41,111 nucleotides of DNA from a virus. Taxonomy: Duplodnaviria > Heunggongvirae > Uroviricota > Caudoviricetes. The stretch is from IMG/VR virus record IMGVR_UViG_2724679059_000002, positions 1 to 41,111 of that record; one strand, written 5' to 3'. Position 1 is the first letter of the stretch. Every line of letters starts with the position of its first letter. The notes under the pieces were generated by a model, which was not told the DNA's origin, did no database searches, and was given only the letters and a program-made list of their open reading frames with translations. Below are positions 7,571 through 31,147 of this stretch, one piece after another. The translations under genes were made by a program, and so were the position numbers.

Positions 7571-7641
7571 GTGGACGAAACAAAAGTCAGTGCTACACTC
7601 ATTGACGCCACATTGAGGTGGCTTATAGATGGAAATTTCAA

Positions 7642-7825: not shown

Positions 7826-7834
7826 TGTGACATG

Positions 7835-10801: not shown

Positions 10802-10806
10802 TTAAT

Positions 10807-12609
10807 TTAACCTCTCAAGAAACACGCCACAGCGACATCAAACAGGCTGGAATCCTGTATTGCCTGCTCACTTTCCCTGTTCGCTTCATCCAGTACTTCA
10901 CGCGCACTGCGCGATTGTGGATTACCATCATCATCCAGCACGGTGATTATCATGTCCGGAGATTCAAGCAGCGAGTCTTCAGCTATACGCAGATCAATAT
11001 CTCCTGCCGGATCTGCCATCATTTTTTGTTCTGTCTGTTGCAATATCTTACCGGGCTCAAAAGGAGCTACTTCGTCTGGCGTCCTGACCTCTGCTGTTTT
11101 ATAGAATGAAACAGCCTGAGCATTAAGTTCACTTTCTGCCTGCTGTCGTCGTGCCAGTTCTGCTCGAGCTTCAAAAAACTGACCTCCAGGCTCGTGCGGC
11201 GCCAACGCGTTACGAGAAAATTCCAGGCGTTCTTGTGCCTGCCGGATTCGTTGGTCAATATCGCGAAGTCTGGCCTGTTTATCTGATCGAGCACGAGATA
11301 AAGCCTTACCGCTACCGGTTGGCTCTTCTGCAAGAATTTGTGCGCGCTGTTCAGTGAGATTTTCAATAATTCGTTGGCTATTAGCGATTTCAGACTGGTA
11401 AACCTGTCTATCGCCACGCGACAAAAGCTGCGCGGCCTGTTCTTCAAGCAACCGATTTTCTATAGCGCGCGCCGTTACTCCATCATCTACAGATGACAGA
11501 GCCTCATTAACTGCCTGAGATAGCAGACTCTTGCGCCCAGGAATTTCACTGAAAGATGCAGACTCAACAATGCTGGCAACGTCTACAGGTCTCCCCTGGC
11601 TAACATCAGACATGGCTTTTCGCAGAGCCTGAATGTGCGAATTACGCGAAAGCACGTTGATCGGAACGCCGGGAGCAATATCAATTTCAGCATGATGAGC
11701 GGCATTCGCCGCCAGTGCAGCATCAATATCAACTGGTGAAAAATTTGGTGCGCTTGTAGACTCGCCGCGAGAGTTAATAAATCTGCCGACACCACCAAAC
11801 GCCACCCCAAGAACAGCATCAATAGCAATTGCCTGTCGATCCAACACATCATACTGGTTAGCCATTTCGCTATAGCCACCATCACGAAGCGTTTTTGCAG
11901 TAAGCCCACGCTGTGCCATACCGAACGCAATATTTGTACCTGCGGCATAGGCAATATCTGGCGTTGCACGTACTGCTGTTGCTGCGGCGCGTCGCACTGA
12001 ACTCTCACCCGTCCGCGCAAGCTGAGCCGCCACACCTTCCGCCAGCGCACCACCAGCACGTAACCCGAGGCTCATAGGGATCAGTGTTCCGGCACCAGCA
12101 GTAATACCCTGCACTAATCCCGCTTCCTGCGCCGTCCTGAAATCAACACCCTGTGCTGTCAACCGTTCAAACTCAGAAAAACCCTGTAGCGAAGTTACCG
12201 CCGCTGCACCTCCGACAGGACCACCGAGCGTTGTACCAACAACAGCCTGCCCGCCCATATCGAACAACCCATAAAGAACCTGCCCGGCGGTTCCGGTTGT
12301 CGCGGCATCAGGCGTCAGCCGCTTAACCTGCTGCTCTGCTAGTTTTCTCTGCTCGGCAATGTATGAAACTGAAGTATCATTGAGCGAGGTGTTTTCGTTA
12401 ATAAACTGAGCAATCGGGGATACGATTTTATCCATCCCTGCCCATAGCAACTGATCTGGCTTTGCCACCAGCCCGGAGTACAAACCAGACAATGCCGCTC
12501 CTACAGCATTGTCGAAAAAACCAACATCGCTGTTAAAGCCCGCTGGATTTGATGCTGCTTCGTCAAGTTGCTGATTCTGATTTACTGGATTAAGGCCAAA
12601 GTAACTCAT
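10807..12609 (-). CDS. Internal virion / ejection protein
   Basis: 600 aa, Gly/Ala-rich central region; synteny within the structural operon. Confidence 0.5.
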   Translation of the reverse strand: MSYFGLNPVNQNQQLDEAASNPAGFNSDVGFFDNAVGAALSGLYSGLVAKPDQLLWAGMDKIVSPIAQFINENTSLNDTSVSYIAEQRKLAEQQVKRLTPDAATTGTAGQVLYGLFDMGGQAVVGTTLGGPVGGAAAVTSLQGFSEFERLTAQGVDFRTAQEAGLVQGITAGAGTLIPMSLGLRAGGALAEGVAAQLARTGESSVRRAAATAVRATPDIAYAAGTNIAFGMAQRGLTAKTLRDGGYSEMANQYDVLDRQAIAIDAVLGVAFGGVGRFINSRGESTSAPNFSPVDIDAALAANAAHHAEIDIAPGVPINVLSRNSHIQALRKAMSDVSQGRPVDVASIVESASFSEIPGRKSLLSQAVNEALSSVDDGVTARAIENRLLEEQAAQLLSRGDRQVYQSEIANSQRIIENLTEQRAQILAEEPTGSGKALSRARSDKQARLRDIDQRIRQAQERLEFSRNALAPHEPGGQFFEARAELARRQQAESELNAQAVSFYKTAEVRTPDEVAPFEPGKILQQTEQKMMADPAGDIDLRIAEDSLLESPDMIITVLDDDGNPQSRSAREVLDEANRESEQAIQDSSLFDVAVACFLRG

Positions 12610-15194
12610 TGCGGAATATCTCCGGAGAATCTCTGACGCTTCTGTGTCAGATCAAGAACAACAGGAGAACCATCATCTTTCAGCAGATAACCAGTACCAA
12701 GTTTCACCAGGTACTGACTATCGCCGTAACTTTGCAAACCATACTGACCAGGCGGTGTTTTTATCCCGGTGCCGACCACTTGTTCATTCCAAGCCTGATC
12801 AACCTGCTTATCGAATTGCTCTGCAGACATTCCCCACGGCAAAAGGACATTCCCCATTCCGTTATAGTCATGCACGCCACCTGTAGCTACGTTAACAGCC
12901 TGCTTCCAGATATCAGTGTCAATTTCGCCTGATATCACGCCTTTTTTCGCCATCACACCAGCGTAATAGTCCTTTGCGATCTCGTATGCCATTGATGCCC
13001 CCTGAGCATCACCAGCAAATGCATCCTTCACCATGTCAGAAAACTCAAGGCGAAGATCAGCATCTTTAGGCATCGGAATACCTTTCGCATCATCAGTACC
13101 TTTACGAGCCGCCGCGCCAGTAAGAATTGTCTGCGCAGCGGTTTCAGGAGACACGGAAACATCCGGATTAAACCAGTTTTTTTCTGCCAAAATACCACCT
13201 GGCTTATCCATCAGTATCCCGGCAACGGCAGCAGATGGAGCGTTGGCACTGATCTGCTGTAGTGCTGACATATACACCTGCCCACCACCAGTGCTCTGCC
13301 TGATGGTATCGAGATATGCTGCCTGTTGGGAAACGGGCGCATCACGAAAGAAAACACCGATCTGATTGGCCTCGTCTTTGGAAAAGAACGTCAGTGGAGT
13401 GCCATATGACTTAGCAAGGTCACTGACCTGAGCAGCACGCAAGGCAACGCTCTGTCCAAAGTTATCCTTATTGCTCATGTCGATAGGCTTTGCCTGTCCG
13501 GCGGCAAGAGAGAACTGTACAGGATCAGCCTGTCGCTGCTTTATCACCTGACTTGCAGCCGACACAACGTTGTCATAAAGAGCGGCTCGTGCCGCATAAC
13601 CCTCCCCTGTCTCACCAGTATCCGGGCGTAATTGCTCAACATATGCTGTAATGCTGCTTGTCGGCATGTTGCGGAAAGAGCCTATATACTGTCCGGCGAT
13701 TTGCGTATTTCTGAACTCGGTATATCGCAGGTTTCCTTCTCTGACTCCATAAGCTGCAATAAAATCAGCCTCACCAGGTGGGTTAGGAAATTCAACGCCA
13801 CGCATATACGCAGCTGTCGCATCGCGAACCTGGCTGTCAATCATCGTTTTATATTCAGCCTGCTGCTGCCGACGCAGTTGATCCGCCTGTCGCATAAAAC
13901 TTGCCTGCGCCTCAGGAGATGCCGCATCGAATGCTGCATTACCGGTATAGCGTTTGGTGTTGGTTGGAATTGTTGATAAACCAAGTGCTGCACTGACACC
14001 AGCAGTTAACTGCTGATCACTGTATGGCTGGCTACCGTTCTCATGATGGATAATGGCTGCACAAAGCGCCTTCAGGGTATCAGGATTAGATGCATCGAGA
14101 GGCTCATCAGCAGAAACGCCAAGTTGTTCGCACACTGCTTTGATATACGACATAGTGTCATTTTTATCAGCAGGCGGTGCCCAGCGATTAATTATCTCGC
14201 TGACGGTATCAATACCCTGCCTCTGATACGACATCAGGTTCCGCCCTAATGCACGAATCCCGTGTTCAGGTGTTTCGAATTTAGCAAATCGACCATCATC
14301 ACCGGTCTGGCCTACCCACGGATTAGTTTTGCTGTATTCGAGATTTCCTGGGTTATTGTTGCGTATGCCACGGGCACGCTCGGAAGAGTCACTATCTGCT
14401 ACAGCACGGCGAGCTCCAGCAGCAGTATCACTTAACTCGCCATTACTTTGGATGAATGCGGTCGCATTGTTTGCCGACCACTGGGACAATGCAGCATCAG
14501 CAACCTTCTCTTTAAACTCGATTTTCTTGGCCTGGATTTGCTCGTTGCTCCAGCCATGTGCAACACCGTACTCCTCAATTTGCTGGAAAGTTTGCTTGTT
14601 AGCCAATACGTATGCGGCGTTGTCGCCATACAATGCTGCGGCATTTTTACCATTGTTCAGCAGTGTCGCCTGAAACTGGCCTTCTTCGTAGGCATTAATT
14701 TGCCCTATCTCGTGTCGCCCGGCCTGCGTAGTGAACTGAATGCGCTGCTGCTGCGCCTGCTGCATGAAAGCATTACGAGCCTGTTCATCCGGCAGCGACA
14801 TAGCCAGTTGTTCGACCTGAGCATCAAACTGCTGCGTATACTCATGGCCTTTTCCAATAGCATTTTTCCCTTTCAGGTTAAGCAATCCTGTTTCAGGATT
14901 ATTCAGCAGATCGCTGCTTATCTGACTGAGGTTAAGAGATGCCTCCTGAGCCAGAGCGATATTGGCACGCTGTTTTGCCTGACCAAAAACATCAATTGCC
15001 TCTGTCCCTGCCCGAACAAAAGCATCACCAATACCTGGCTGAGAAAACGTCTGCAAGCCTGCTGACTGAACCCCACGGCTCTGAACCTGACGGCCGGATA
15101 CTGTTGGTACGACTGGCATTATAATCCTCCGGGTAATCTGGTTCCTGCTGCTGCCCCGATTGGCGCAGGAGTGCTTTGAGTAAACGGACTCCAC
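12606..15194 (-). CDS. Internal virion / ejection protein (gp15-like by position)
   Basis: 862 aa; synteny; start overlaps the upstream 181-aa gene. Confidence 0.5.
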   Translation of the reverse strand: MESVYSKHSCANRGSSRNQITRRIIMPVVPTVSGRQVQSRGVQSAGLQTFSQPGIGDAFVRAGTEAIDVFGQAKQRANIALAQEASLNLSQISSDLLNNPETGLLNLKGKNAIGKGHEYTQQFDAQVEQLAMSLPDEQARNAFMQQAQQQRIQFTTQAGRHEIGQINAYEEGQFQATLLNNGKNAAALYGDNAAYVLANKQTFQQIEEYGVAHGWSNEQIQAKKIEFKEKVADAALSQWSANNATAFIQSNGELSDTAAGARRAVADSDSSERARGIRNNNPGNLEYSKTNPWVGQTGDDGRFAKFETPEHGIRALGRNLMSYQRQGIDTVSEIINRWAPPADKNDTMSYIKAVCEQLGVSADEPLDASNPDTLKALCAAIIHHENGSQPYSDQQLTAGVSAALGLSTIPTNTKRYTGNAAFDAASPEAQASFMRQADQLRRQQQAEYKTMIDSQVRDATAAYMRGVEFPNPPGEADFIAAYGVREGNLRYTEFRNTQIAGQYIGSFRNMPTSSITAYVEQLRPDTGETGEGYAARAALYDNVVSAASQVIKQRQADPVQFSLAAGQAKPIDMSNKDNFGQSVALRAAQVSDLAKSYGTPLTFFSKDEANQIGVFFRDAPVSQQAAYLDTIRQSTGGGQVYMSALQQISANAPSAAVAGILMDKPGGILAEKNWFNPDVSVSPETAAQTILTGAAARKGTDDAKGIPMPKDADLRLEFSDMVKDAFAGDAQGASMAYEIAKDYYAGVMAKKGVISGEIDTDIWKQAVNVATGGVHDYNGMGNVLLPWGMSAEQFDKQVDQAWNEQVVGTGIKTPPGQYGLQSYGDSQYLVKLGTGYLLKDDGSPVVLDLTQKRQRFSGDIPQ

Positions 15195-15664
15195 GTCCCA
15201 CCAAACATCTGGTACGCACCGTATGCCTTCAGAGGCGCAGTGAGCAATGTTGTTGCTGCTCCCACATTCCCCTGTTTACGGGCTGAACTGGCTTCTACTT
15301 TATAGTTGGCAGCCTGAACCTGATAACCGTAAGCCTCGCGTTGCGCGTTATTCACCGTCGTCAGCGAATCAAGAGCGCCAAACTGAGCAGTGTCACCAAA
15401 TATATCCAGCGCGTTACCTGTAGATAAATCAGCGCCGGTCGCCCCCATTGTCGCCGCCTGTGTACCAAGCCGCTGTCGGGTCTCTCTGCGCCGTTGCTCA
15501 GCTTCAGCGTTACCCCTGTTTATTGCATCATTTGCCTGAGCTGTGGCTATATCTGCGTTAGCTTCTGCAACCTTCGAGGCATACTTTCCCTGTTGGTACT
15601 GGGTGTATGCCTGAATGCCACTCATGGCGAGCATTGCGCCACCAGCAATAACCGGATCGCACAT
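15119..15664 (-). CDS. Internal virion protein B-like
   Basis: 181 aa, Ala/Gly/Gln-rich; position equivalent to T7 gp14. Confidence 0.45.
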   Translation of the reverse strand: MCDPVIAGGAMLAMSGIQAYTQYQQGKYASKVAEANADIATAQANDAINRGNAEAEQRRRETRQRLGTQAATMGATGADLSTGNALDIFGDTAQFGALDSLTTVNNAQREAYGYQVQAANYKVEASSARKQGNVGAATTLLTAPLKAYGAYQMFGGTWSPFTQSTPAPIGAAAGTRLPGGL

Positions 15665-16128
15665 TATTTTCTCTCCATGTGAAATCTGTGGAAATTAAGA
15701 CCAAGAGCACCATAAGGCGCGGCTTCTTCAAGCCTGAATCCAAGCCAGTGCAGCCATGCTTTGGCAACATGGTTTCGCTCGTCGACGTAGTTTTCCAGGC
15801 GCGGATAAACTGCCAGCATCTGCTGCAATACAGGTCGGCAGTGGCGAAGAAATGTCTTCTGATATTTTTCAATACGGCTGGTCCCGACCAGCCATGGCGT
15901 ACCATTGCCACCGATCATTGACGCCGGAGATACGCCAAACATGGTTACCAGTTCTCCGTTCGCAAATCCTGACCAGGCCATAGTCGCAGTACGCAGACCA
16001 ACACGCAGCGCATCTTCGGTAGTCATCAGTGATACCGCATACAGTTCGTCAATATCAGCCTGACGAACATCCGGCAAAATCATCTGAAGATGCTCTTCGG
16101 TTGCGGGAATAATTTGAACATCGATCAT
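15664..16128 (-). CDS. Internal virion protein A-like
   Basis: 154 aa immediately after the nozzle gene; position equivalent to T7 gp13. Confidence 0.4.
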   Translation of the reverse strand: MIDVQIIPATEEHLQMILPDVRQADIDELYAVSLMTTEDALRVGLRTATMAWSGFANGELVTMFGVSPASMIGGNGTPWLVGTSRIEKYQKTFLRHCRPVLQQMLAVYPRLENYVDERNHVAKAWLHWLGFRLEEAAPYGALGLNFHRFHMERK

Positions 16129-18599
16129 CAGAATCCCCCAACAGTAAGGCGAGGAATAACGGCAAGAACAGACAGCGGCAACGGATCAAGCTGACGGATT
16201 TTTACACGTCCGTTTTTGCCCCAGTTACTGTCCAGTTTCACTTCTACTTTTCCGGTAGCGTCATCAACAGGATCATCGTAGAACTCGAATTCACGCTGTG
16301 GATATTCGTACCATTTACCGCCGTGGGTAGTCGCCCAGATGCCGCGACTGGCATTCACAACCAGAGTAACGGAGGGGATCACCTGTTTTTTGTCCAGCAG
16401 CGTTTCCTGTCCGTTAATGTTGATATCCAGTGTTTCGAATTCAGCAGTTATTGGCAGGCCGATGTGCACAACAGCCCCCGGTGATTCCAGCGTGACGGCA
16501 CCTCCGGAAACCACTTTTTGTGGTTCCACGTTCGCATCAGAGAGGATGTTTACGGTCTGGCCTTCAAGATGAGACAGGCCTCCAAATGTCCGGCGCGCCA
16601 TCTGCCAGTTCGTGGTGGCCACATTCCTGAGGGATGGCGGGACGTTCCTGTTAGCACGAACCACTACAGCGGTATTGCTGGTTACAGAAATAATGTCGCA
16701 ACGTAATTCTTTTGACACTTCATCGCCAGTATCAGGAACAGTTCCGGTATAAGGGAACTGTAGTTGCGCGCCGACATCACTACTGGTGAAGTACGCACCA
16801 CCAGAAACACTGATTGTATATTCCGCACGGTAATCCCATTCACCAGAACCACCACTGATGGTCATCGTTCTGTCAGACGTATTTCTTCCATCATAGCTAA
16901 GGCCAGAATCAACAAAGAAAGCATCTTCATCGCTGGTAAATAAACGGCTGGACAGCCGCTCGATGTATCTCACTGTTTGCCCGTTAACGGTTCGGTTAAC
17001 GACGAAATACACCGCATCTTCATTGCCTTCGCTGATACTGCATGTGCTTTCATATTTTCCGGTACTGGATTGTGGTGCCCATGCAAAAACCTGCTGATCA
17101 CGCAAATAGGTCATCACCAGTAATTTACCGTCATCACGAATGCAGAAGGCGCTGGAGTAAGGGACAATAGAGAAGCACCAGTCAACAATGCTGTGCTTCT
17201 GAAAAAGATGATTGGCAAGGATGGTCAGGTCGTTCCCCTGATAGCCGTCAACATCGAATGAGTAGGCCAGATCACGGACAACACTGCCTTTCTCCTGGAC
17301 GAACAGAGCAATATTCGCCACGGCAATTGGTGGGACATTGCTCGAGCCATTTGATCCCTGAGAGCTGAATGCAAATGATGATGGGGTTAACACTTTGTTC
17401 TGATCGCCGGTGATGACGTACTCACCTCCGGAAGTCAGTGCCACCAGCGAACCGACATCAATCAGGTGGCGGATCTCATTAACCTGACGCCCGGCATAGG
17501 TGTAGATAATTCTGTCGTCATCCTGCGTAGGATTGCTTTTGCCAAAATCCTTATAATCCCCGGTACGGCTGGCCCAGATAGTCTGAGGGAACGCAGTCGA
17601 TGCGGCGAAGTAAAGACGTTGTTTATAATAAACAACAGTGCCAGGATAACCATTAACACTGTTCCAGGCATATTTAGCCCATTTATAGCTGGCATTATCC
17701 TCGCCAACTACCTGCGAAGGGATATAGGAAATCACCTCGGCAGTTGCAGTAGTTCCATTTGCAGCAGTGATACGGGCAATGCCAAAACCACTGTGCAGAT
17801 ATTCCCACTCAATGCCAGTATCATCATCACCGGATCCGCCCCAGCCATCCCATGATGTGCCTTCTGTATGCGAAGGGCGCAAAGTACCTGTTTTGCCTGC
17901 TGTAACGGCGCGATAGTAGTTACTGTCTGCACGGCGAATATCGCCAATCGACGTACTCTTACTGGTTTCCCATACCGGCACTGAATCCACTGCAGGCTGT
18001 TCCAGATAGAACAATTTTCCTACCTGCTCCGCGCCAAAAATAGAGGCGCTTGCCGTTAACGTAATTGTCCCGGTGCTGGCGCTGGCATAAACCGTCACTG
18101 ACTCGTCAATATTGATATCTTCAAATGGCCCGTTCTTCGTTACCACATCAACCAGTTGCCAGTTGTCATGAGCATATCGGCGCAACTCTTTCGGCGGGTA
18201 TGCCGGGTGAACCAGCGTAAGCACGTCGGCGCTTTGCGTGAATTTAATTCGGAACAGATCGGCTTCAGTATATGGCGTGGCAATTTCATAAATAACATTG
18301 CTGCTGTTCAGCACCAACGCACCATCTTTGATAACGCGCATGTACAGGTGTCCGAACTCCAGAGCATAGGTCTGAACCGTCGAGAACTGGAACGGGATCA
18401 GACGGCATTTACGATTTGGGTATTTGGCGGCACCGACAAAACGCGTACCAGGTCGATTCTCAACGCCGCCATACTGCCGCACGATAAAGTTATCGCACTT
18501 GCGCAATGCCACCTGGTACTTCGCCATGTCAATACGCCCGTACAACGACGGTCCAATCTCACCACCGGCAAAGCTGGGCTGGATCCAACTGATAGCCAT
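16128..18599 (-). CDS. Tail tubular protein B / nozzle-like
   Basis: 823 aa directly downstream of the gp11-like adaptor with overlapping stop/start; size and position match podovirus nozzle; no clear sequence similarity to T7 gp12 by eye. Confidence 0.5.
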   Translation of the reverse strand: MAISWIQPSFAGGEIGPSLYGRIDMAKYQVALRKCDNFIVRQYGGVENRPGTRFVGAAKYPNRKCRLIPFQFSTVQTYALEFGHLYMRVIKDGALVLNSSNVIYEIATPYTEADLFRIKFTQSADVLTLVHPAYPPKELRRYAHDNWQLVDVVTKNGPFEDINIDESVTVYASASTGTITLTASASIFGAEQVGKLFYLEQPAVDSVPVWETSKSTSIGDIRRADSNYYRAVTAGKTGTLRPSHTEGTSWDGWGGSGDDDTGIEWEYLHSGFGIARITAANGTTATAEVISYIPSQVVGEDNASYKWAKYAWNSVNGYPGTVVYYKQRLYFAASTAFPQTIWASRTGDYKDFGKSNPTQDDDRIIYTYAGRQVNEIRHLIDVGSLVALTSGGEYVITGDQNKVLTPSSFAFSSQGSNGSSNVPPIAVANIALFVQEKGSVVRDLAYSFDVDGYQGNDLTILANHLFQKHSIVDWCFSIVPYSSAFCIRDDGKLLVMTYLRDQQVFAWAPQSSTGKYESTCSISEGNEDAVYFVVNRTVNGQTVRYIERLSSRLFTSDEDAFFVDSGLSYDGRNTSDRTMTISGGSGEWDYRAEYTISVSGGAYFTSSDVGAQLQFPYTGTVPDTGDEVSKELRCDIISVTSNTAVVVRANRNVPPSLRNVATTNWQMARRTFGGLSHLEGQTVNILSDANVEPQKVVSGGAVTLESPGAVVHIGLPITAEFETLDININGQETLLDKKQVIPSVTLVVNASRGIWATTHGGKWYEYPQREFEFYDDPVDDATGKVEVKLDSNWGKNGRVKIRQLDPLPLSVLAVIPRLTVGGF

Positions 18600-19207
18600 C
18601 AGGACAACCTCGCAATGGTAAACTCATCAACCGGTGGCTGTGGTTCCTGTGATTCATTCTGGCTATGCGAGCCAGCACTAAGAATCACGCGATTGTACAT
18701 ATTGAGGGCAAACGTACCGAGGTCTGCATTCCCAGTCAGCGCCATGTTAATAGCTGCCGCAAGACGCCAGGCCAGCGCCTCCATAAAAATGGCATCAAAC
18801 ATGTTCACATCTGTAACGCGAGAGACATACTTGAGCCATGCCTGCGGCTGGTCTGTGTAGATCAATTTTCCTGTTCCGTTGGTGTCTGCACCAACTTCGT
18901 ACTGAACGCGCATTGCTGCTGTTGGATTACGTACACCAGGAAGCATAATTTCAGTAATGCGCAGACAATCGGACGGGTACTGGTAAGCATATTCCCAGTC
19001 AGGCGGTGGATTGCTCGTATCTGCAAGCGCCACGCGTTTGGTAGCAAAGTTCCAGTCAAAATCAGAAAGCACAGCATCACGACAGGCCTCAAAGTGCAGC
19101 GAACATTCCCCCGCTTCCTTGCTGGCTTCCGTCAGGCTGTTAATGCTGCGGCTGTTGCCAATATTGGACAGCGCACGATTACAGATCTCTACTACAGAGG
19201 CCATCAC
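18599..19207 (-). CDS. Tail tubular protein A / gatekeeper adaptor (T7 gp11-like)
   Basis: 202 aa; N-terminal pattern ICNRALSNIG...SINSL...DWNF resembles T7 gp11 (VNDILASIGEPPVSTL...GWTFN). Confidence 0.5.
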   Translation of the reverse strand: MMASVVEICNRALSNIGNSRSINSLTEASKEAGECSLHFEACRDAVLSDFDWNFATKRVALADTSNPPPDWEYAYQYPSDCLRITEIMLPGVRNPTAAMRVQYEVGADTNGTGKLIYTDQPQAWLKYVSRVTDVNMFDAIFMEALAWRLAAAINMALTGNADLGTFALNMYNRVILSAGSHSQNESQEPQPPVDEFTIARLS

Positions 19208-19533
19208 TCACCTCCGTTACCGTACAGAGTTTCAGCCGCTGATTTTTCTACATCCCCGGAAACAGGAGCGATCGCCATATCAGTGATCTGCAGATCGGCG
19301 CTGCGATTAACGCCATCGTTAGTTTCTCTGGCAGACAGGCCTCGAATAACAGCCTTTGCAGTTATCATCACTTCTGTTCCGACGCCCTGAGGTTGCGCCT
19401 TCAGCTTATTCAATGTGTCGTTATTAAGAGTGATGCACAGCCCCCACGGGTATTCATCGCGAGTTCTGGTTTCTCCGCTCTCATCCTGGTAGCTGTCAGT
19501 GCCGGTTTTGAGGTTTACGAGTTCCATATACAC
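19204..19533 (-). CDS. Hypothetical head/tail joining protein
   Basis: 109-aa ORF in the structural operon, coupled to neighbours. Confidence 0.4.
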   Translation of the reverse strand: MYMELVNLKTGTDSYQDESGETRTRDEYPWGLCITLNNDTLNKLKAQPQGVGTEVMITAKAVIRGLSARETNDGVNRSADLQITDMAIAPVSGDVEKSAAETLYGNGGE

Positions 19534-19577
19534 TCCTGCAATAAAGGGGCCGAAGCCCCTTGTCGGATTCGCGAGGC

Positions 19578-19922
19578 TTACACGCCCAGTTCTTTACGCT
19601 TATCTGCGATCTTCTCGCGGAGCGTTTCGGCTTTAGCGTTATGGTGTGGCTTCTCGTTAAAGAGCAATTCGTACTCTTCACGGAGCTTATCCAGTTCACC
19701 ATCATCTGACACATCGTTGATGATTTTGGTGCTGGTTGCTGCCATAGACACCTTTCCTGCTACCTTTGCTTTTGCCTGTCTGGCTGCATCGTTAACAGGT
19801 TCCAGTGCGCTACCAGGCTCACCTTCGTATTCGATTTCTGCCCCCTCCGGCCACAGTGTGTTATGGATATGAGAGAGGCGCAGAACGCGGTATCTTGGTT
19901 TCTCACCTGACATCGATATCAC
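19578..19922 (-). CDS. Hypothetical structural-module protein
   Basis: 114-aa ORF in operon context. Confidence 0.4.
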   Translation of the reverse strand: MISMSGEKPRYRVLRLSHIHNTLWPEGAEIEYEGEPGSALEPVNDAARQAKAKVAGKVSMAATSTKIINDVSDDGELDKLREEYELLFNEKPHHNAKAETLREKIADKRKELGV

Positions 19923-19923
19923 C

Positions 19924-20361
19924 TTAACCAGTTACTTTTGAGCGGATCGGGTACGGCGTATTGGCATCAACATCCAGACTGATACCCGCAGTGAATTTGC
20001 CGGCCGTTAGTGGGCCAGTTGCGACGGAGTAGTTAACACGCAGATATCGCTGAACACCGGCTGGCACCTTTGCAGAAACAACTCGCTTACCTGCTGTCAG
20101 GGTGGCCTTTGCCAACGCACCACTATCATAAATAGTGGTCCAAGAGCTGTTATTCTCACTCGTCTGCAACTGGATGTTTACAGTTGCCTCACCACTTGCC
20201 GTGGCGGCTTCGTTAACCAGCACCCAAAACTCAAGCGGGTAACCCACACCGATATCGCGACGGTTTCCATCAATTGGACCGAGATCGATTACGTCAGTAG
20301 AAGCCGCGGTATTCGTAACCGCCTGAGCTTCGGAGAACATCAACAGTTTGTCGGTGATCAT
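19924..20361 (-). CDS. Hypothetical protein, possible capsid decoration/minor capsid protein
   Basis: 145 aa directly downstream of the major capsid gene; Thr/Ala/Val-rich, beta-rich-looking. Confidence 0.4.
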   Translation of the reverse strand: MITDKLLMFSEAQAVTNTAASTDVIDLGPIDGNRRDIGVGYPLEFWVLVNEAATASGEATVNIQLQTSENNSSWTTIYDSGALAKATLTAGKRVVSAKVPAGVQRYLRVNYSVATGPLTAGKFTAGISLDVDANTPYPIRSKVTG

Positions 20362-20412
20362 CTTCTTTCTCCATTAGTGGGTCTGTTACGACCCACAGGT
20401 TAATAACAGGCG

Positions 20413-21405
20413 TTACACCACGCGGGCTTCTGTTTCCAGAAGCGCATCAGTTTCACGGATTGGTACACCACGGAATGAAGTCCACCACTCGCCTTCTGTC
20501 TCTTTTACGCTGATCGCCAGAGATGTTTTCTCCAGAGATTGCAGATCAAGAGCCTGGCCTACAGTGCGGTTCATGTAGAACACCGGGCGACCCATGCCAC
20601 GATTTGGAATGCGATGCAGTGCTTTAACCATCAACTTCGCAATATTTGCGGCAGAGGAAGGTTCTGAAAGATTTCTGACATCGATGTTTGCAATGCGAAC
20701 AACATAACGCCAGTCACGCAGAGCAAGTCCGTTGTCCCATTTGTAATGGGTACGGTAGCCTTCGTACTTGCCGCCATTCGCATCTTCCAGTGTCACCTGG
20801 CCTTTATCTTCCATCTGGATGCCAGCCTTCTGCCCTTTCGGGAAGATGCCATGCACGGTGTTTTCGCCCCACACCACTAACCAGATTGAGGTGTTATCTG
20901 TACCCGTGCCACCAGCATCAATGATGTTCTGAGCATTACCCGCAGACAGGCTGGAATAGCGGGAGGACAGTCCCATAAACTGCTGAGGGTTAACGCTGGA
21001 ATCACCATAAAACAGTGTCTGCGCCATCTGCTGATTCATCGCTTCAATAAATGCGCGGTCTTCAGACAGGCGGAATTCGGCGGTATTACCGTTCAGATCA
21101 GCCAGTGACTTATCGACTTCAGCATAGGTTTCCAGCATGCCAACGGAATCGGTGACCTGCACTGTGGTTGATTTGCTTGGCTGTACACCATAGTTCAGCA
21201 AACGCCAGGTAGCTGAAGGTAAACCAGAACGAATGGTGGTTCGGTGTCCGGTAGGAAGGTTCCCTTCGACAAAAGGCATATCCTGAAGGATCGGGTTAGT
21301 TTGACCGAGAAGCTCGATAATCTTATCGACTTTCCCGTTTGGATCGACGCGCTTACCCCAGTCAGCCAGCGTTAGCGCAGTTAAGCCTTTAACAGCCATT
21401 GTCAT
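20413..21405 (-). CDS. Major capsid protein
   Basis: 330 aa directly after the scaffold gene; size and position match the podovirus portal-scaffold-capsid order. Confidence 0.6.
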   Translation of the reverse strand: MTMAVKGLTALTLADWGKRVDPNGKVDKIIELLGQTNPILQDMPFVEGNLPTGHRTTIRSGLPSATWRLLNYGVQPSKSTTVQVTDSVGMLETYAEVDKSLADLNGNTAEFRLSEDRAFIEAMNQQMAQTLFYGDSSVNPQQFMGLSSRYSSLSAGNAQNIIDAGGTGTDNTSIWLVVWGENTVHGIFPKGQKAGIQMEDKGQVTLEDANGGKYEGYRTHYKWDNGLALRDWRYVVRIANIDVRNLSEPSSAANIAKLMVKALHRIPNRGMGRPVFYMNRTVGQALDLQSLEKTSLAISVKETEGEWWTSFRGVPIRETDALLETEARVV

Positions 21406-21413
21406 TTCCTCTC

Positions 21414-22115
21414 TTATTTGCCATAGAGCACTTCGGCCGCACTACGCTGGCCTTCATTACCACCGGTGACCATGCCATCTTCAGACATCGCCTTTCCGAT
21501 TTTCACGAACGTTTTGACCAGATCAGGGTGATTACCCAGCCCGGTGGTGTTCAGATATTCTTTGAGTTCAGGTGTCCCGAACTGGTCAAGCGCACGCTGT
21601 GCGGCGCTAAGGTTAGAAATCAACTTGTCGCCACCGATTTCTTTGTCAGCTTTTACATCAGCAGCCCACTGCTCGGTTGTTTTCTGCCAGGCTTCTGCCT
21701 GGCGCTGCTGCACACCTGCCAGAATCTTCGGATAAGCATCAACCAGCTTTTGCGCTTGCTCGTTGGTCAGGTTAAGTTCTCGCGCCACCGGCTCGAATTC
21801 CTTCAACGCTTCTGTATCCAGCTCTACGCCTTCGGCAGCCTGAAACTCGTACTTCTCAGGCGCACCCTCTGGTTTATCGCCGTCCTTTTTTTCATCCTGC
21901 TTATCGTTTTCAGGCTTTTTGTCATCAGCAGGTTTATCGCCATCAGCAACAGGTTGTGGCTTATCACCTTCCGATTGTGATGGATCACCAACTGGAGCAG
22001 GGTTATCACCTGCAGGCGCTGACGGTTCTGACGCAGCCGGAGCTGCTCCACCATCGACTGGTTGCTCATTGCAAAGACGGCGATACAGCAAACGCTCAAA
22101 TAAATTCATGATCAC
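21414..22115 (-). CDS. Scaffolding protein
   Basis: 233 aa, highly acidic and helical (DKPADDKKPENDKQDEKKDGDKPEG), between portal and capsid genes. Confidence 0.55.
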   Translation of the reverse strand: MIMNLFERLLYRRLCNEQPVDGGAAPAASEPSAPAGDNPAPVGDPSQSEGDKPQPVADGDKPADDKKPENDKQDEKKDGDKPEGAPEKYEFQAAEGVELDTEALKEFEPVARELNLTNEQAQKLVDAYPKILAGVQQRQAEAWQKTTEQWAADVKADKEIGGDKLISNLSAAQRALDQFGTPELKEYLNTTGLGNHPDLVKTFVKIGKAMSEDGMVTGGNEGQRSAAEVLYGK

Positions 22116-22408
22116 TCCTGTTCACTGGCCTCTTTGGCCATCTTCAAATACTGTTCAGGGCAATGCGCCATAACGCGCTGAAACAGTTCCAGCGCCAGAT
22201 TGCGTTGCCCCTCATTAAATGCCATTGCCATAGCGTCCATCGGTGAGATAGCGGAAAACACACGGCCTTTCTCCAGCACCGACCAGACAACGCGACGCCC
22301 CTGTTCACTGCTCATGACAAAGCGAATGTCATCAATTTCACGCTGTGCCATGTCACGTTGCTTACGGGCGTTTTCTTCTTTCAGTTGATCATCTTCGTAA
22401 TCTGTCAT
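22112..22408 (-). CDS. Hypothetical small protein between portal and scaffold
   Basis: 98-aa ORF with coupled stop/start to neighbours. Confidence 0.4.
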   Translation of the reverse strand: MTDYEDDQLKEENARKQRDMAQREIDDIRFVMSSEQGRRVVWSVLEKGRVFSAISPMDAMAMAFNEGQRNLALELFQRVMAHCPEQYLKMAKEASEQE

Positions 22409-23043
22409 TGTGATTGCCCACCCTGACCACTAACTGCATTCGCCATAGCTGACAAAACACTCGGATCCGAAGTTTTAGCTTCGCTTAGCGTCTTGGCGCC
22501 CTGTGCCGCCGCCATTCCCATCGCCATCATTTGTTGCTGCTGTTGCTGCTGTGCCCGTTGCTGGCGAGCCTGCTCAACCTGTTCCTGCGGAACAATGACG
22601 GTTGGAGACACTCCGGACATATCAGCGAATGCATCGATCGCCTGATCAACGTTGAGTTTGTCGAGAGCTTCTGGTTTCGCTTGCGCAAGTTGACCAATGA
22701 AGTTGACCGTAGACGCCAGACTGGACAGGCCGATAGACTTCTGCGCCTGAGCCATGACGGAAATGTATTCGACCTTCAGGGGCATACCTTCCATCGCGTC
22801 AGGCGGTGGCGGCAGCATGTTTTTACGCACCATCATCGAGAAAGCGCGGTCAATGAGAGGATTAAGACATTCGTCGTTCAGACGCTCCAGAACCGGCCCC
22901 AACATCAGAAGTTTTTCTTCTTTCATTTCGATCACCGCTTCAACAGGCATCGAGCGGGTATTGATGTTCTGCAACATCATGAACAGATCGACAAAGTAGG
23001 CGCTGTTAATGATTTGACGAGTGTCCTGAATGTCTGCCACCAA
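22405..23043 (-). CDS. Portal (head-tail connector) protein, C-terminal part after apparent frameshift
   Basis: C-terminus QQRAQQQQQQQMMAMGMAAAQGA resembles the T7 gp8 C-terminus; this frame stays open upstream past 23043, so the gene appears interrupted by a 1-nt frame change near 23070-23110. Confidence 0.55.
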   Translation of the reverse strand: MVADIQDTRQIINSAYFVDLFMMLQNINTRSMPVEAVIEMKEEKLLMLGPVLERLNDECLNPLIDRAFSMMVRKNMLPPPPDAMEGMPLKVEYISVMAQAQKSIGLSSLASTVNFIGQLAQAKPEALDKLNVDQAIDAFADMSGVSPTVIVPQEQVEQARQQRAQQQQQQQMMAMGMAAAQGAKTLSEAKTSDPSVLSAMANAVSGQGGQSQ

Positions 23044-24083
23044 ATCTGCTGTACTGGGGTTAACCAGATAAGCAGGCCTGAAGCCATCCTGACCAGTATC
23101 TGATCGATATACGTGATGTCGCCAGGAAGAAGGGAGGCGCGCTGATTCTTGAGGGAAGTCGGAGCAACCATCGGCGGATTGGTGGCTTTATCAATCAACT
23201 GCGACTTGCGCTTCTGGAGAAGCTGCAATGCCTTAACAGGTCCAAGCGCCAGCATACCAGGGCATGATGATCCATAAACATCTTCGCCGTTAACTTCCCA
23301 GCGCGGAGCCATAATTGGAAACTCATCGAATCCGGACTCACGCAACAACTTGTCGTTATCGCCACCAACCTCGTAATAAACCGATTTGAATGGCTTGTTC
23401 TTGCTATCCAGCTTCGATGTATCGCGGTCAATGTTCGGGTAAACCGAATGCATCACTTCAATCCACTTCTCGTAGGTGCCGCTTTCCCACATGCTTTTTA
23501 CGGATTCGCTGACGTTATTTAGCCCGAACTCCTGAACAAGCTGACGAACAGTCATAGAGAACTTGCGAAAACAGGTGTCCACACTGCCACGAGGTGAGTT
23601 AGCCAGGTAGTAACTGCCTATCGGGAATGGCATTGTGCGAATGATGTCCTCGTCATCCTCCAGCACTGCCATTGCACCAGTGCTGTATGTGCCGAGGCTT
23701 CCGTATAACTGCGGCAGCGACTGGTAGAGATTCGACTTATTGAACATATCGTTCATGCGGTTCTGCACCGCCTCAAGCCACAACTTAACAGGGCCATAAT
23801 CCATCATTTCAGGATCTGGCGTAGCCAGGCGAAACCACGGACGCGCGGGGCTTGTGATGCCTGACATCATGCCGCTGGCGAGAGTGCGCGCCGCCATAGT
23901 CCCGGTCGAATCAATAATGCGTGTATTGCGCCGATCGTTACGGTTGACCTCAGAAGTCAGAAAGCGGGAACCACGCGGGTTGATGTAATCACTCAACTCG
24001 CGCCAGTGCGGCTCGAACGACTGACGCTCGCTTTCAAGTTGTGCGAACTGTTTGTTCAATCGCTCTTTGGTTGTTTCCGCCAT
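22977..24083 (-). CDS. Portal (head-tail connector) protein, N-terminal part
   Basis: 368-aa ORF with RBS ggag; immediately follows terminase (across the tRNA/moron insert); joined with 22405..23043 gives ~560 aa, typical T7-type portal size. Confidence 0.6.
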   Translation of the reverse strand: MAETTKERLNKQFAQLESERQSFEPHWRELSDYINPRGSRFLTSEVNRNDRRNTRIIDSTGTMAARTLASGMMSGITSPARPWFRLATPDPEMMDYGPVKLWLEAVQNRMNDMFNKSNLYQSLPQLYGSLGTYSTGAMAVLEDDEDIIRTMPFPIGSYYLANSPRGSVDTCFRKFSMTVRQLVQEFGLNNVSESVKSMWESGTYEKWIEVMHSVYPNIDRDTSKLDSKNKPFKSVYYEVGGDNDKLLRESGFDEFPIMAPRWEVNGEDVYGSSCPGMLALGPVKALQLLQKRKSQLIDKATNPPMVAPTSLKNQRASLLPGDITYIDQILVRMASGLLIWLTPVQQIWWQTFRTLVKSLTAPTLSICS

Positions 24084-24731: not shown

Positions 24732-24808
24732 GTGGCATTAGCTCAGTTGGACAGAGCAACCGCCTTCTAAGCGGTTGGTCGCAGGTTCGAATCCTGCATG
24801 CCACGCCA
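24732..24808 (+). tRNA. tRNA-Arg (anticodon UCU), phage-encoded
   Basis: Full cloverleaf: acceptor GUGGCAU/AUGCCAC, D-arm gctc-agttggaca-gagc, anticodon stem accgc/gcggt with loop cuUCUaa, T-arm gcagg-ttcgaat-cctgc, discriminator G and encoded CCA; close to E. coli argU in the arms. Confidence 0.9.
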
Positions 24809-25515: not shown

Positions 25516-26991
25516 TTAAGCATATGGATCGTAATCTGTGATGGCCTTGCCTTGCTGGTTCTGCTGCCCGGGAATTCGCAGACGCTTCGACACAGGGAAC
25601 GCAAACGTCAGCAGTAGCGCATCGCCTTTACCAGGAGAACGCCCAAGCCGCTCCTTGATATCTTCCTTCGGTTCGATAACGATTTTACCGTCCACTCGAA
25701 CTTTGTACTCTGCCGCAGACAGGTCGTCCGCTGTTTCCTGGTCATCCAGCATGCCGCCCAGCCTCAGCCATGTCTTGCATGAGTTGAACATCTCCCCACG
25801 CTTGTTGAGCATCTGCGGGTCAGTAGACGCGCCACCGAACGGAACAAGTTGCCATGTACGACCCCAGCCATCACCGATTGACTTCAGACCAGTTCCGTAA
25901 CCGAAGTCGATGAACACTGCGTCAGCCTGGTACCGGTCTTCAAAGTCAGCGATACGCTTCGCCATAATCAGATCGTCAGTGGTCTTGTTGCCAGTCCACA
26001 GCACCTTACTGTGCAGCCCCTGCCGCAGGTATATCACAGCGTCATCAACGCCGGAGTATGCCGGGTCAACGCCGATTATCACCGGAGCATGTGCAACCTG
26101 CGCAGCGGTTACCACCCGTTTCATTGCCTCGTCAGTAAGGCCGGTAGGGATAAACTGCAATTCAGATGCATCCGGGAATATGCCGCGCACACGGATTTTA
26201 ACGAAGTCGCTGTCTTCCCCGTAGTCATCAACCCATTTCTGCAACTGCTGTTTGTTAGTGCCTTCCACCGTCCGGCTGTCAATCTGCGCAGTTTTCCAGC
26301 GGTGTTTATATTTGCGGAAACATTCGCGAAAACGCCCGGTGTTACGTGTAGGGTTTCCGAACGCCACCCAGATAATCTCAGTGTCTTCGTCCGTAAGCGC
26401 ACCCTCAGCAACTTCCCACACCAGATCCGCAATGTTCGACGCTTCATCGAATACCACGATGATGCGTTTGCGCTCGTTGTGTAGTCCGGCGAATGCCTCA
26501 GTGTTGTGCTCAGACCAGGGTATTGCGTCAGCCCGCCACCGCTTGTCGTGCCCAGGGTCATTGCTGTACATCGCGGTAGCGGTACAGGTAAACCAGTCTT
26601 TCGTGATAGCAAGGTTCGACCACTTGATAATTTCCGGCCAGGTCTTCGTTCGTAGCTGGTTGTCGGTGTTGGCGGTCACCACGACCTTACAATCCTCGCA
26701 AGTGGACATGCCCCAGTTGATCAGCATTGAGATGAATGCGGATTTACCAATACCGTGACCAGAAGCGCGTGCCAACATAAGCGGCTGATAGCGCGTCTCT
26801 GGATTCTGCAGGTGATCACGTATCTCTCGGAACGCATCAGCCTGCCACTGACGTGGGCCGGTAGCATGTGCCAGTTCAGTCCCCTCTTCCCCCCACGGGA
26901 ACGCATAGAGGGCATAGCCAAGCGGATCGTGAGTGAACCCTGCAATATCCTCGATTAACTGCTCTTCAGGAGATAACGCTGTATCTGTCAC
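25516..26991 (-). CDS. Terminase large subunit
   Basis: 491 aa; Walker A-like GHGIGKS; acidic nuclease-type motifs in the C-terminal half; positioned between terS and portal. Confidence 0.8.
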   Translation of the reverse strand: MTDTALSPEEQLIEDIAGFTHDPLGYALYAFPWGEEGTELAHATGPRQWQADAFREIRDHLQNPETRYQPLMLARASGHGIGKSAFISMLINWGMSTCEDCKVVVTANTDNQLRTKTWPEIIKWSNLAITKDWFTCTATAMYSNDPGHDKRWRADAIPWSEHNTEAFAGLHNERKRIIVVFDEASNIADLVWEVAEGALTDEDTEIIWVAFGNPTRNTGRFRECFRKYKHRWKTAQIDSRTVEGTNKQQLQKWVDDYGEDSDFVKIRVRGIFPDASELQFIPTGLTDEAMKRVVTAAQVAHAPVIIGVDPAYSGVDDAVIYLRQGLHSKVLWTGNKTTDDLIMAKRIADFEDRYQADAVFIDFGYGTGLKSIGDGWGRTWQLVPFGGASTDPQMLNKRGEMFNSCKTWLRLGGMLDDQETADDLSAAEYKVRVDGKIVIEPKEDIKERLGRSPGKGDALLLTFAFPVSKRLRIPGQQNQQGKAITDYDPYA

Positions 26992-27584
26992 TGATTACCA
27001 TCCTGACGTTCTTTGAGTCGCTTCCTGGCTGCTGCTATGCGATCAGCAATTGTCACATTCACATTAACATCCAGGCGTTCTTTGAATGCGTTGACGTCGA
27101 CGTGCTTACCAATCAGTTCGAGGTTCTTCACCTTGTCAGGCCATTTAATTTTTTTGAGGATTGTCTCTATCGAATCCTCGTTCATGTTCATGATGGTCGA
27201 TGACAGATCAAAGCCGCTAAGCGTAGTGCGCCAGATTTTCGGCCACTCGCGGATTGGCTTAAGGCTCCCATCGTCGTTGAGGATGTCGATCACGTCCATC
27301 TGGTCGATCTCCACCAGGCGCATGAGAACGTAATCAGCACTGACGCGCATTCGTTTGTTGCGCTCCTCCATCAACTCGGCAATCCGTTTCTGAATGCGTT
27401 CATCGCGCATCATGACACTGGCTTTAACTGCCGCTGTATTTGGGGAGAATCCTGCGTTAATCGCAGCCTGAGTCTGATTTTCAGGCGTTTTGATGTATGA
27501 CTGGCAATAAGCCTCCTGCATTGCTGTTAGTGGCTTAAATTGCGTTGATTTGCGTTTATAGGTTTTAGGTTCAGCAGGCATCAT
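26988..27584 (-). CDS. Terminase small subunit (P27-family-like)
   Basis: Immediately upstream of and overlapping terL; start assigned to internal ATG-ATG at 27584 (track ORF begins at a TTG at 27662). Confidence 0.6.
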   Translation of the reverse strand: MMPAEPKTYKRKSTQFKPLTAMQEAYCQSYIKTPENQTQAAINAGFSPNTAAVKASVMMRDERIQKRIAELMEERNKRMRVSADYVLMRLVEIDQMDVIDILNDDGSLKPIREWPKIWRTTLSGFDLSSTIMNMNEDSIETILKKIKWPDKVKNLELIGKHVDVNAFKERLDVNVNVTIADRIAAARKRLKERQDGNQ

Positions 27585-27658
27585 AACCACCGTGGTAATA
27601 GTTACCGTTGTGGTAATAGTACCATGCAAAATAAAGCCGCCATAGTTGGCGGCAGTAT

Positions 27659-27871
27659 TCAAAGTCCATCAAATTCATCGTAAAAACTCTCGTCAAGATA
27701 CCCTTTCCATTTACCGCGAATGAAAATTACATCCTCGCCGCAAGGGTGCTGACTGTCGATAACTATATCCCTCCTGGCGCAACCATACTTATGCATGAGA
27801 AATTTAACCTCTTTCGGAAAATTAGCTGAGTTATCTCTCATATCTTCAAGGTCGTAGCGTATTTTTGGCAT
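27659..27871 (-). CDS. Hypothetical small protein upstream of terS
   Basis: Start set to ATG at 27871 (MPKIRYD...) with RBS gaaggtg; the palindrome GTGACATGTCAC lies immediately upstream. Confidence 0.4.
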   Translation of the reverse strand: MPKIRYDLEDMRDNSANFPKEVKFLMHKYGCARRDIVIDSQHPCGEDVIFIRGKWKGYLDESFYDEFDGL

Positions 27872-28230: not shown

Positions 28231-28370
28231 TATTTACCTTTATCGCGTATACCTTTACCGGTTTATCGCCGAAGTGGGGATGTGTGATTGTCTTTGCTTC
28301 GTGCATTTGTCGCACTTTCGGCACCATCCAGATAGGCACATCCGTCCGCAATTAACACATATAGGCCACA

Positions 28371-31101: not shown

Positions 31102-31147
31102 TGGTTGCCTCCTGTTAAATTTTCTGTGATATCAGCGTTTACGACGA

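Follow-up and report, generated by a model that had tools for sequence, protein, structure and literature searches.

Salmonella phage epsilon15, a virion studied by cryo-electron microscopy and the type member of the genus Uetakevirus, and Escherichia phage phiV10 (NC_007804) are, in database records, named species of that genus. Electron microscopy showed short-tailed particles for a close relative, ZX5, which inserts at guaA and for which experiments confirmed the repressor and the antirepressor (PMC9782041). For phiV10, epsilon15 and ZX5 alike, ATTGAGTGGGAATGATT was reported as the core of attachment at the guaA 3′ end; for epsilon15 the ZX5 paper reports 37% coverage at 82% identity and a repressor 42% identical (PMC9782041). 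Here we analyse a 41,111-nucleotide stretch of viral DNA (IMG/VR record IMGVR_UViG_2724679059_000002, positions 1 to 41,111; hereafter the window). An earlier annotation made from the letters alone (the sequence-only reading) had taken this stretch, and 16128-24083 in particular, for a mosaic in which a T7-like virion module is combined with lambdoid regulation and a P4-type integrase. Our data indicate that the window is, almost certainly, a nearly complete prophage of the phiV10/epsilon15 type, located at the guaA 3′ end beside yfgH and yfgI.

Identity, integration site and integrity of the prophage

In a megablast comparison with 50,697 phage records, region 16128-24083 showed 98.3% identity across all 7,956 bases to phiV10, and full-length matches at this identity were also obtained to O157 typing phages 9 and 10, phiv142-3, ZX5, TL-2011b, HEMP4 and PAS61. 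Seventeen records covered at least 80% of the query, and more distant matches were found to Enterobacter phage Tyrion (82%) and Salmonella phages (~77%). The relationship extends through the window, each half of which shares 96-98% DNA identity over 73-82% of its length with HEMP4, phiV10, TL-2011b and ZX5, the parts without coverage being swapped accessory modules. Blastn against phiV10 traced a single collinear path that was broken only by these modules, and the window was collinear, gene by gene, with phiV10, an E. coli prophage and epsilon15. The Uetakevirus gene order, terS-terL-portal-protease-capsid-staple-adaptor-nozzle-internal proteins-tailspike-lysis-int-early genes, is present. The whole arrangement, in which the sequence-only reading had seen a notable combination, is the standard Uetakevirus genome plan; it is already known and is not a new or notable mosaic.

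The integration site is consistent with this assignment. The core ATTGAGTGGGAATGATT has one exact match in the window (0.00 expected), and similarity to phiV10 begins exactly at 1161. In the closest complete genome the prophage has yfgH-yfgI on one side and guaA on the other. The window runs from host DNA through the lysis-side junction to the first integrase codon, the integrase start being the last base of the window, and the second attachment (att) copy lies beyond it. The phiV10 annotation places the integrase in cd00801 INT_P4, and the proposal that the integrase/AlpA pair is P4-like was borne out by Pfam, which identified Arm-DNA-bind_3 in the integrase and Phage_AlpA (PF05930; 24.2 bits, cut-off 21) in the AlpA-family protein; both are of the P4/CP4-57 kind.

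Temperate phages of this build are not rare, contrary to the expectation that those with T7-type virions would be uncommon. The portal segment was found with a 61-base probe in 503 of 5,426 complete E. coli genomes, roughly 9%. Close homologues of the adaptor and nozzle occur in prophages of Klebsiella, Enterobacter, Dickeya, Cronobacter, Yersinia, Morganella and Proteus, and the nozzle family comprises 18,269 clusters at 50% identity in a library of 1.84 billion proteins.

Several points weigh against the assignment. The portal and integrase genes are broken as read, so that this copy may have lost the capacity to excise or to make particles. Differences from phiV10 are found in the tailspike C-terminus, in 6721-8324, in part of the nin-like region and in the DnaT-like gene, which means that host range and some accessory functions are not those of phiV10. 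The roles suggested for the 600-aa and 824-aa internal proteins come from synteny and a published hidden Markov model (HMM) study. A particle of this exact prophage has never been seen; its virion is predicted from homology to solved relatives, and its tail, known here from genes, would be short as it is in those relatives.

Comparison with the closest prophage revealed isolated single-base deletions, in coding DNA at ~595, ~23098 and ~40121 and in non-coding DNA at ~7641, 24989 and 36050. The portal gene reads as two open reading frames (ORFs; 22977-24083 and 22405-23043), separated in frame by the loss, relative to phiV10, of one T of a TT on the coding strand at ~23098. By tblastn, portal residues 1-329 and 330-559 lie in different frames, and each segment matches an intact relative with 100% identity. 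Hence, where a "portal C-terminus" had been recognised, the portal was correctly named but the whole gene is present, split by this one-nucleotide deletion. In the integrase gene a CCC has become CC at ~40121, shifting the frame after residue ~331 and putting the HxxR, H and catalytic Y motifs out of frame. Near the start of yfgI, a TT has become T at ~595. The portal deletion is shared by 0 of 503 genomes, the integrase deletion by 0 of 319 and the yfgI deletion by 0 of 5,329 matching genomes.

One explanation is that the prophage is of the same kind but that this copy is truly defective, with real deletions that abolish excision and virion assembly and leave a locked-in element. The two phage frameshifts and the integrase deprived of its HxxR, H and Y motifs are as this explanation predicts, and the absence of both deletions from other genomes is how recent private mutations would look. 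We nonetheless regard it as unlikely. The host gene yfgI is interrupted by a third private one-nucleotide deletion, at a site where all the other matching genomes have it intact; every isolated indel is a deletion, most of them lie in homopolymer runs of 2-3 bases, and non-coding DNA is affected as well; and the perfect protein identity of both portal halves to the intact relative reveals no later decay. This pattern suits assembly error better than selection-free decay. Because one deletion lies in a chromosomal gene, all are deletions, most fall in short same-base runs and no further decay accompanies them, the deletions in portal, integrase and yfgI are probably errors of the source assembly. 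The sequence thus probably holds indel errors that produce false pseudogenes in these three genes.

Virion proteins and their relation to T7

On the minus strand, 16128-24083 encodes the portal, a Bbp19-like protein, a protease, the major capsid protein, a Bbp16-like cement protein, a 111-aa protein, a gp10 staple, the adaptor and the nozzle. The major capsid protein was the sole protein to receive a name in the NCBIfam scan (equivalog MCP_gp7_epsi_15, 411 bits, cut-off 75). Its PDB matches were 3j4u (E=4e-128), 8cjz (E=5e-87) and 3j40 (gp7, E=3e-85), the Bordetella BPP-1 capsid (3j4u) scoring above epsilon15 gp7 (3j40). A cement protein of Bbp16 type and a staple protein of epsilon15 gp10 type are both encoded by the phage (19204-21405, minus strand).

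The relation of the tail to T7 is a distant one. Direct sequence similarity to T7 was rejected, as pairwise BLASTP of four structural proteins against their T7 counterparts gave no significant match (adaptor/gp11, E=26; nozzle/gp12, E=1.8; portal/gp8, E=0.052; fibre/gp17, E=0.48). For the adaptor, an AlphaFold2 model (pLDDT 84.5) was searched with Foldseek, which returned the Carin-1 connector (E=2.7e-16), the LME-1, PhiM1 and P-SCSP1u adaptors and the KP32 tail tubular protein A. Four T7 gp11 entries (7box, 7ey7, 6r21 and 8e4g) also matched, with E=5e-6 to 1.6e-4 and TM 0.55-0.60; the best was 7box_M (E=5.2e-6, TM ~0.6). The adaptor profile found no match to T7 gp11 alone in hhalign; the gp11 link rests on fold, and on this basis the gp11-like adaptor of the sequence-only reading stands, at 18599-19207.

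The 823-aa nozzle had been left unnamed in that reading, although it is the largest gene inside 16128-24083. A 30-member family profile of the nozzle matched T7 gp12 alone with E=3e-4, and hhalign of the nozzle profile against an 8-member Autographiviridae gp12 profile gave a probability of 97.5% and E=6.3e-12 over 216 columns. The alignment pairs nozzle residues 319-551 with T7 gp12 residues 348-578 and covers the central domain only. The same central domain was linked between epsilon15 and T7 by HMM matching in the study of Hardies et al., 2016 (PMC4819975). The nozzle-gp12 link was obtained by profile-profile comparison only: hmmsearch of two nozzle profiles, one shallow and one diverse, against PDB sequences found the Carin-1 nozzle, LME-1 orf18 and a cyanophage tailspike domain, and not T7 gp12. 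An AlphaFold2 model of the nozzle built from a shallow alignment (17 sequences, 82-90% identical) had a pLDDT of 39.4 and was unusable.

Downstream of the nozzle gene lie the genes for the internal virion proteins (IVPs). In epsilon15, gp13 was assigned to IVP-A, gp14 to IVP-B and gp17 to IVP-D, the last as a proposed homologue of T7 gp16, with gp15 and gp16 as IVP-C candidates (PMC4819975). The 181-aa protein of the window carries, in a relative, the PGAP name "virion core protein, T7 gp14 family". The 837-aa protein matched PDB 9vvp (Gp29, E=6.7e-38) and 7q47 (endolysin, E=2.7e-17) and is a "tail injection transglycosylase" in PHROGs; its lysozyme/transglycosylase domain is as expected of an ejected wall-degrading protein. 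Pfam and PDB searches gave no match for the 600-aa and 824-aa proteins. Three large ejection proteins had been predicted; these genes exist, at 8327-15119 and so outside 16128-24083, and their proposed T7 assignment comes from synteny and the 2016 study. The match of the 837-aa protein to phrog_2276 was considered as a tape-measure candidate and rejected, as the matched part is confined to the lytic-transglycosylase domain. The window has no genes for a tape measure, tail tube or sheath; the first two had been named in advance as what would count against the sequence-only reading.

The tailspike gene also lies outside 16128-24083, at 3237-5231; it is the fibre gene to which the sequence-only reading referred. 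PHROG tail-fibre families match residues 1-162, the Carin-1 tail fibre in PDB matches residues 1-165 (E=4e-27), and a three-way alignment shows invariant columns concentrated in the first ~165 residues. Against Pfam Phage_T7_tail (PF03906), the N-terminus scored 20.3 bits (E=4.6e-4; model positions 10-149 of 157), under the cut-off of 25.2. Only the first ~460 nt match phiV10 by blastn, and the gene has a GC content of ~37% compared with ~50% elsewhere. The esterase domain scored 56.2 bits with Pfam Lipase_GDSL_2. This tailspike module takes the position that the O157 fibre has in phiV10, and the window lacks oac, the acetyltransferase gene of phiV10. A small number of further E. coli prophages carry the same tailspike, OkiPb01711 among them (99.8% protein identity).

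According to the phiV10 record, oac acetylates the host O-antigen and acts in superinfection immunity. We tentatively suggest, as a rather doubtful possibility, that the tailspike esterase might strip O-acetyl groups from O-antigen to gain access, the reverse of its sibling's exclusion chemistry, the substrate being a predicted one. If true, the two phages would lend themselves to a paired study of exclusion by acetylation, and of how it is evaded, inside one phage genus. Of the whole window, only the exchanged tailspike with its esterase could repay further work, since the tailspike determines host range.

Taken together, four features of a T7-type tail machine are found here, namely a gp8-family portal, a gp11-fold adaptor, a gp12-related nozzle and a gp14-family internal protein. 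Those of the Autographiviridae are not: the window lacks an RNA polymerase, pairwise similarity to T7 structural proteins, and a T7-type capsid (gp10) and gp9 scaffold without protease. None of the ORFs of at least 300 aa carries a phage RNA polymerase domain, all having other assigned functions, in agreement with the sequence-only reading. Profile searches against Autographiviridae and other podoviruses, which that reading had proposed, gave matches for the portal, gp14 and gp12 proteins, while the capsid, staple and cement proteins matched epsilon15/BPP-1 types. Its T7-like virion module was thus right as to the short-tailed kind, the portal, adaptor, nozzle and gp14 protein being distant T7 homologues in the same order, and overstated otherwise, as the head genes and terminase are of other lineages and BLASTP was empty. 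The kinship of the tail, the portal and some of the internal proteins with the T7 machine is ancient, and the virion overall is of epsilon15 type. Judged from its sequence, the prophage appears to be of a temperate, short-tailed phage type with a tail anciently related to that of T7.

These data also bear on two other identities. A recent and unusual mosaic, combining an Autographiviridae virion module with regulation of lambdoid kind and an integrase of P4 type, would account for the gene order from portal through adaptor, nozzle, gp13-like, gp14-family and large internal proteins to fibre, which mirrors T7 genes 8 to 17, for the Pfam T7 gp8 and gp14 families, the gp11 fold and the gp12 profile match, and for early-region segments that are 90-95% identical to Stx and other lambdoid phages. 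It is nevertheless highly improbable. The combination is the fixed plan of a named genus with many members; the empty BLASTP comparisons make the T7 link ancient and not a recent module capture; the capsid, the decoration proteins, the protease and the terminase are of types other than those of T7; and a 2016 study had already related the tail and internal proteins of epsilon15 to T7 (PMC4819975). The chance that the window instead holds a P22-like phage, the other common temperate podovirus type of enterobacteria, is smaller still and close to nil. Temperate lifestyle, short-tailed relatives, a tailspike and a Bro/Ant-type antirepressor would all fit such a phage, and P22 gp10 is a very distant relative of tubular tail protein B (PMC4819975). 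However, the P22 portal, gp4, gp10, gp26 and coat families had no match in Pfam, PHROGs or PDB searches, and the adaptor fold search returned gp11-type adaptors of T7, KP32, P-SCSP1u and PhiM1.

For the Uetakevirus-type particle, homology suggests the following organisation. The short tail would consist of the T7 gp8-family portal, the gp11-fold adaptor and the gp12-related nozzle, with six tailspikes predicted to dock on it via their conserved N-terminal domain. The head would differ from that of T7 in having an epsilon15 gp7-type capsid, a gp10 staple, a Bbp16-like cement, a maturation protease and a non-T7 terminase pair. It would package the gp13-like and gp14-family proteins, the 837-aa protein with its murein-degrading domain and the 600-aa and 824-aa proteins, all of which are expected to be ejected and to bridge the cell envelope.

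Regulation, early genes and accessory modules

In the immunity region the cro-like gene encodes 76 aa without a Pfam match and was placed by its position and by identity to relatives. The 15-bp palindrome TTACC-N5-GGTAA occurs in 9 exact copies where 0.01 are expected, and 43 copies in total were found with up to two mismatches (11 expected). Three sites lie between the repressor and cro-like genes. Two pairs, each spaced 62 bp apart, are located downstream of the repressor gene and between the P and DUF1064 genes. The portal operon has a site upstream of it, and further sites are found close to terS and to the tailspike gene, around the antirepressor gene and in the nin-like region. The exact copies occupy intergenic or promoter-proximal positions. 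The phiV10 genome has 8 exact copies at matching places and epsilon15 has 11, most of which are annotated as repressor binding sites in the epsilon15 RefSeq record. The palindrome was therefore rejected as a new regulatory motif. The distribution of the sites suggests control that is more dispersed than in lambda.

The ZX5 homologue of the Bro-N protein acted as an antirepressor in experiments (PMC9782041). By analogy, the helix-turn-helix (HTH) repressor would maintain lysogeny through the 15-bp operators at the divergent repressor/cro promoters and at several other promoters, and the Bro-type antirepressor would oppose it. Insertion and excision would be carried out by the P4-type integrase and the AlpA-type excisionase, and transcription by the host polymerase.

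Among the early genes, the exonuclease (273 aa) and RecT (293 aa) genes overlap by 4 bases, and the epsilon15 annotation likewise has two genes. Pfam also finds PerC and an MT-A70 methyltransferase in the early region. The nin-like region (27889-33013) is shared in part by phiV10. It includes a PAPS-reductase-domain protein (31148-32155, minus strand; Pfam 129 bits) in a segment without phiV10 match, followed by a 151-aa ORF. PADLOC gave generic PAPS-reductase (SspD/DndC/BrxP-like, partial) and methyltransferase matches on the accessory genes, and neither a defence system nor a DNA-modification system was recognised in complete form.

A 1.6-kb insert that is absent from phiV10 carries, on the plus strand at 6978-7550, a gene for a type II toxin of the YafO family, the homology to YafO starting at 7005. 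The insert sits between the antirepressor and 824-aa protein genes, and the toxin gene is common in related E. coli prophages. A small ORF upstream (6851-7030) could be the antitoxin; PADLOC gave no match here. The terminase and portal genes flank a tRNA-Arg gene whose orientation is opposite to that of the structural genes. The lysis cassette, collinear with phiV10 p27-p30, matches Pfam DUF2514, Glyco_hydro_19, Phage_holin_3_7 and Phage_holin_8. Feature coordinates are collected in Table 1.

Table 1. Features of the window with their positions, strand and supporting evidence
Feature	Position	Strand	Evidence or components
Host flank	1-1070	+	yfgH (1-516, lipoprotein), yfgI (~532-1070); Pfam glycine zipper, DUF5384; PGAP names in closest genome
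att core ATTGAGTGGGAATGATT	1161-1177	-	Prophage/host junction, lysis-gene side; reproduces guaA 3′ end
Lysis cassette	1288-3097	-	Rz-like spanin 1288-1770, GH19 endolysin 1767-2396, holin 2386-2694, holin-like membrane protein 2681-3097
Tailspike/tail fibre, 664 aa	3237-5231	-	Residues 1-165 conserved particle-binding N-terminus; 275-448 SGNH/GDSL esterase domain
Bro-N antirepressor-like protein	5985-6710	+	Pfam Bro-N 71 bits
Internal virion protein, 824 aa, epsilon15 gp17 counterpart	8327-10801	-	phrog_684 virion structural; collinear with phiV10 p20
Internal virion protein, 600 aa, epsilon15 gp16 counterpart	10807-12609	-	phrog_1145; synteny with phiV10 p19; IVP-C candidate in PMC4819975
Internal virion protein, 837 aa, epsilon15 gp15 counterpart	12606-15119	-	Lytic-transglycosylase/lysozyme domain, residues ~249-398
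Internal virion protein, 181 aa, T7 gp14 family	15119-15664	-	Pfam T7_gp14 (PF24072) 30.8 bits, cut-off 27; phrog_418
Internal virion protein, 154 aa, T7 gp13/IVP-A position	15664-16128	-	phrog_308; synteny; PMC4819975
Tail nozzle (tubular tail protein B), 823 aa, T7 gp12 counterpart	16128-18599	-	PDB Carin-1 "Tail Nozzle" 8ck1_A E=1e-216
Head-to-tail adaptor (tubular tail protein A), 202 aa, T7 gp11 fold	18599-19207	-	AlphaFold2 model and Foldseek
Capsid staple protein, epsilon15 gp10 family	19204-19533	-	Pfam Gp10-like 173 bits
Bbp16-family capsid cement protein	19924-20361	-	Pfam Bbp16 166 bits
Major capsid protein, epsilon15 gp7/BPP-1 family (HK97 fold)	20413-21405	-	Pfam GP7 495 bits
Head maturation protease	21414-22115	-	phrog_458 protease E=3.5e-111; PGAP "peptidase" in relative
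Portal, T7 gp8 Pfam family	22405-24083	-	Pfam Head-tail_con (PF12236): 410.7 bits N-terminal, 182.6 bits C-terminal part
Phage-borne tRNA-Arg, anticodon TCT	24732-24808	+	ARAGORN; annotated in related prophages and phages too
Terminase large (25516-26991) and small (26988-27662)	25516-27662	-	phrog_2 TerL; Pfam Terminase_2; phiV10 annotation "PacB-like"; not T7 type
Accessory region resembling lambda nin	27889-33013	-	epsilon15 gp49-like regulator, DUF4752, DUF551, Ea22, PAPS-reductase-like, DUF1064 (Pfam)
Replication genes	33131-34721	-	Lambda P homologue 33131-33907 (Phage_lambda_P, PF06992, 187.7 bits); DnaT-domain initiator 33879-34721 (67 bits)
Immunity region	35045-36014	both	cro-like 35045-35275 (-); palindromes 35312, 35343, 35360; HTH repressor, 194 aa, 35430-36014 (+), Pfam HTH_3
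Early-left genes	36618-38615	+	PDDEXK exonuclease 36618-37439 (DUF3799); RecT 37436-38317 (110.8 bits); AlpA-family regulator/excisionase 38367-38615
P4-type tyrosine integrase	39862-41111	-	Arm-DNA-bind_3 (PF13356) 72 bits, Phage_int_M (PF22022), truncated Phage_integrase (PF00589)
TTACC-N5-GGTAA, exact copies	5716, 6776, 24395, 27602, 33017, 33079, 35360, 36071, 36133
TTACC-N5-GGTAA, one mismatch	5336, 27584, 34975, 35312

Comparison with known systems

As a discovery the window carries little weight, the architecture being already present in the epsilon15 and phiV10 genome papers and records and the T7 comparison having been published in 2016. Its practical value lies in annotation: the 823-aa gene encodes the nozzle and not an ejection protein, and the portal gene is whole bar one base.

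Compared with lambda and the lambdoid phages, the window has a repressor facing a cro-like gene over a three-site operator region, early-left recombination genes (RecT and its exonuclease) and a lambda P homologue. It shares the Ea22, DUF551 and DUF1064 genes with lambdoid phages, and early stretches are 90-95% identical to Stx and other lambdoid phages. Unlike lambda, it has a DnaT-domain initiator in place of O, scattered operator palindromes and podovirus structural genes. No N, Q or O Pfam family was found in the ORFs scanned, although very divergent analogues would escape Pfam. The description of the regulation as lambdoid is thus apt for the shared genes and loose as regards N, Q and O and the dispersed operators.

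The likeness to T7 is concentrated in how the genes for the portal, adaptor, nozzle, gp13-like protein, gp14-like protein, large internal proteins and fibre are ordered and sized (T7 genes 8 and 11-17), together with the Pfam portal and gp14 families, the gp11 fold and the gp12 central domain. By contrast, the window phage is temperate and without an RNA polymerase, whereas T7 is obligately lytic. Its capsid protein belongs to another family and is accompanied by staple and cement proteins, its terminase is different, and a protease is encoded where T7 has the gp9 scaffold. The muralytic domain is found in the first large internal protein, while the T7 record puts the endolysin domain in gp16.

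The closest known systems are phiV10 and its kin (HEMP4, TL-2011b, phiv142-3, vB_EcoP_ZX5 and O157 typing phages 9/10), with which the window shares genome-wide gene order, the att core and guaA site, the repressor family, operator palindrome, integrase, AlpA and tRNA-Arg. It differs from phiV10 in its tailspike C-terminus, a low-GC module with an SGNH esterase, in the absence of the oac O-acetyltransferase gene, in the YafO-family toxin gene within 6721-8324, and in a swapped nin-like region and DnaT-like gene. Moreover, the exonuclease and RecT are two genes where the phiV10 record annotates a single RecE-RecT fusion, and the frameshifts in portal and integrase are private to the window. The epsilon15 genome is collinear with it and encodes homologues of the same proteins (gp4 portal, gp7 capsid protein, gp10 staple, gp11, gp12, gp13-17 and the gp20 N-terminus) as well as the integrase, the AlpA-like gp33, RecT and the TTACC-N5-GGTAA repressor sites; identity is lower, and epsilon15 has other serotype-conversion genes and another tailspike. 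Finally, the nearest solved structures for the portal, nozzle, connector/adaptor, capsid protein and tail-fibre N-terminus are those of Cobetia marina phage Carin-1 (PDB 8CJZ, 8CK0 and 8CK1), with E values of 5e-177 for the portal, 1e-216 for the nozzle, 4e-26 (sequence) and 2.7e-16 (Foldseek) for the connector, 5e-87 for the capsid and 4e-27 for the fibre N-terminus. Carin-1 differs from the window phage in its marine host and receptor-binding domains, and identity in the adaptor fold alignment is 32%.

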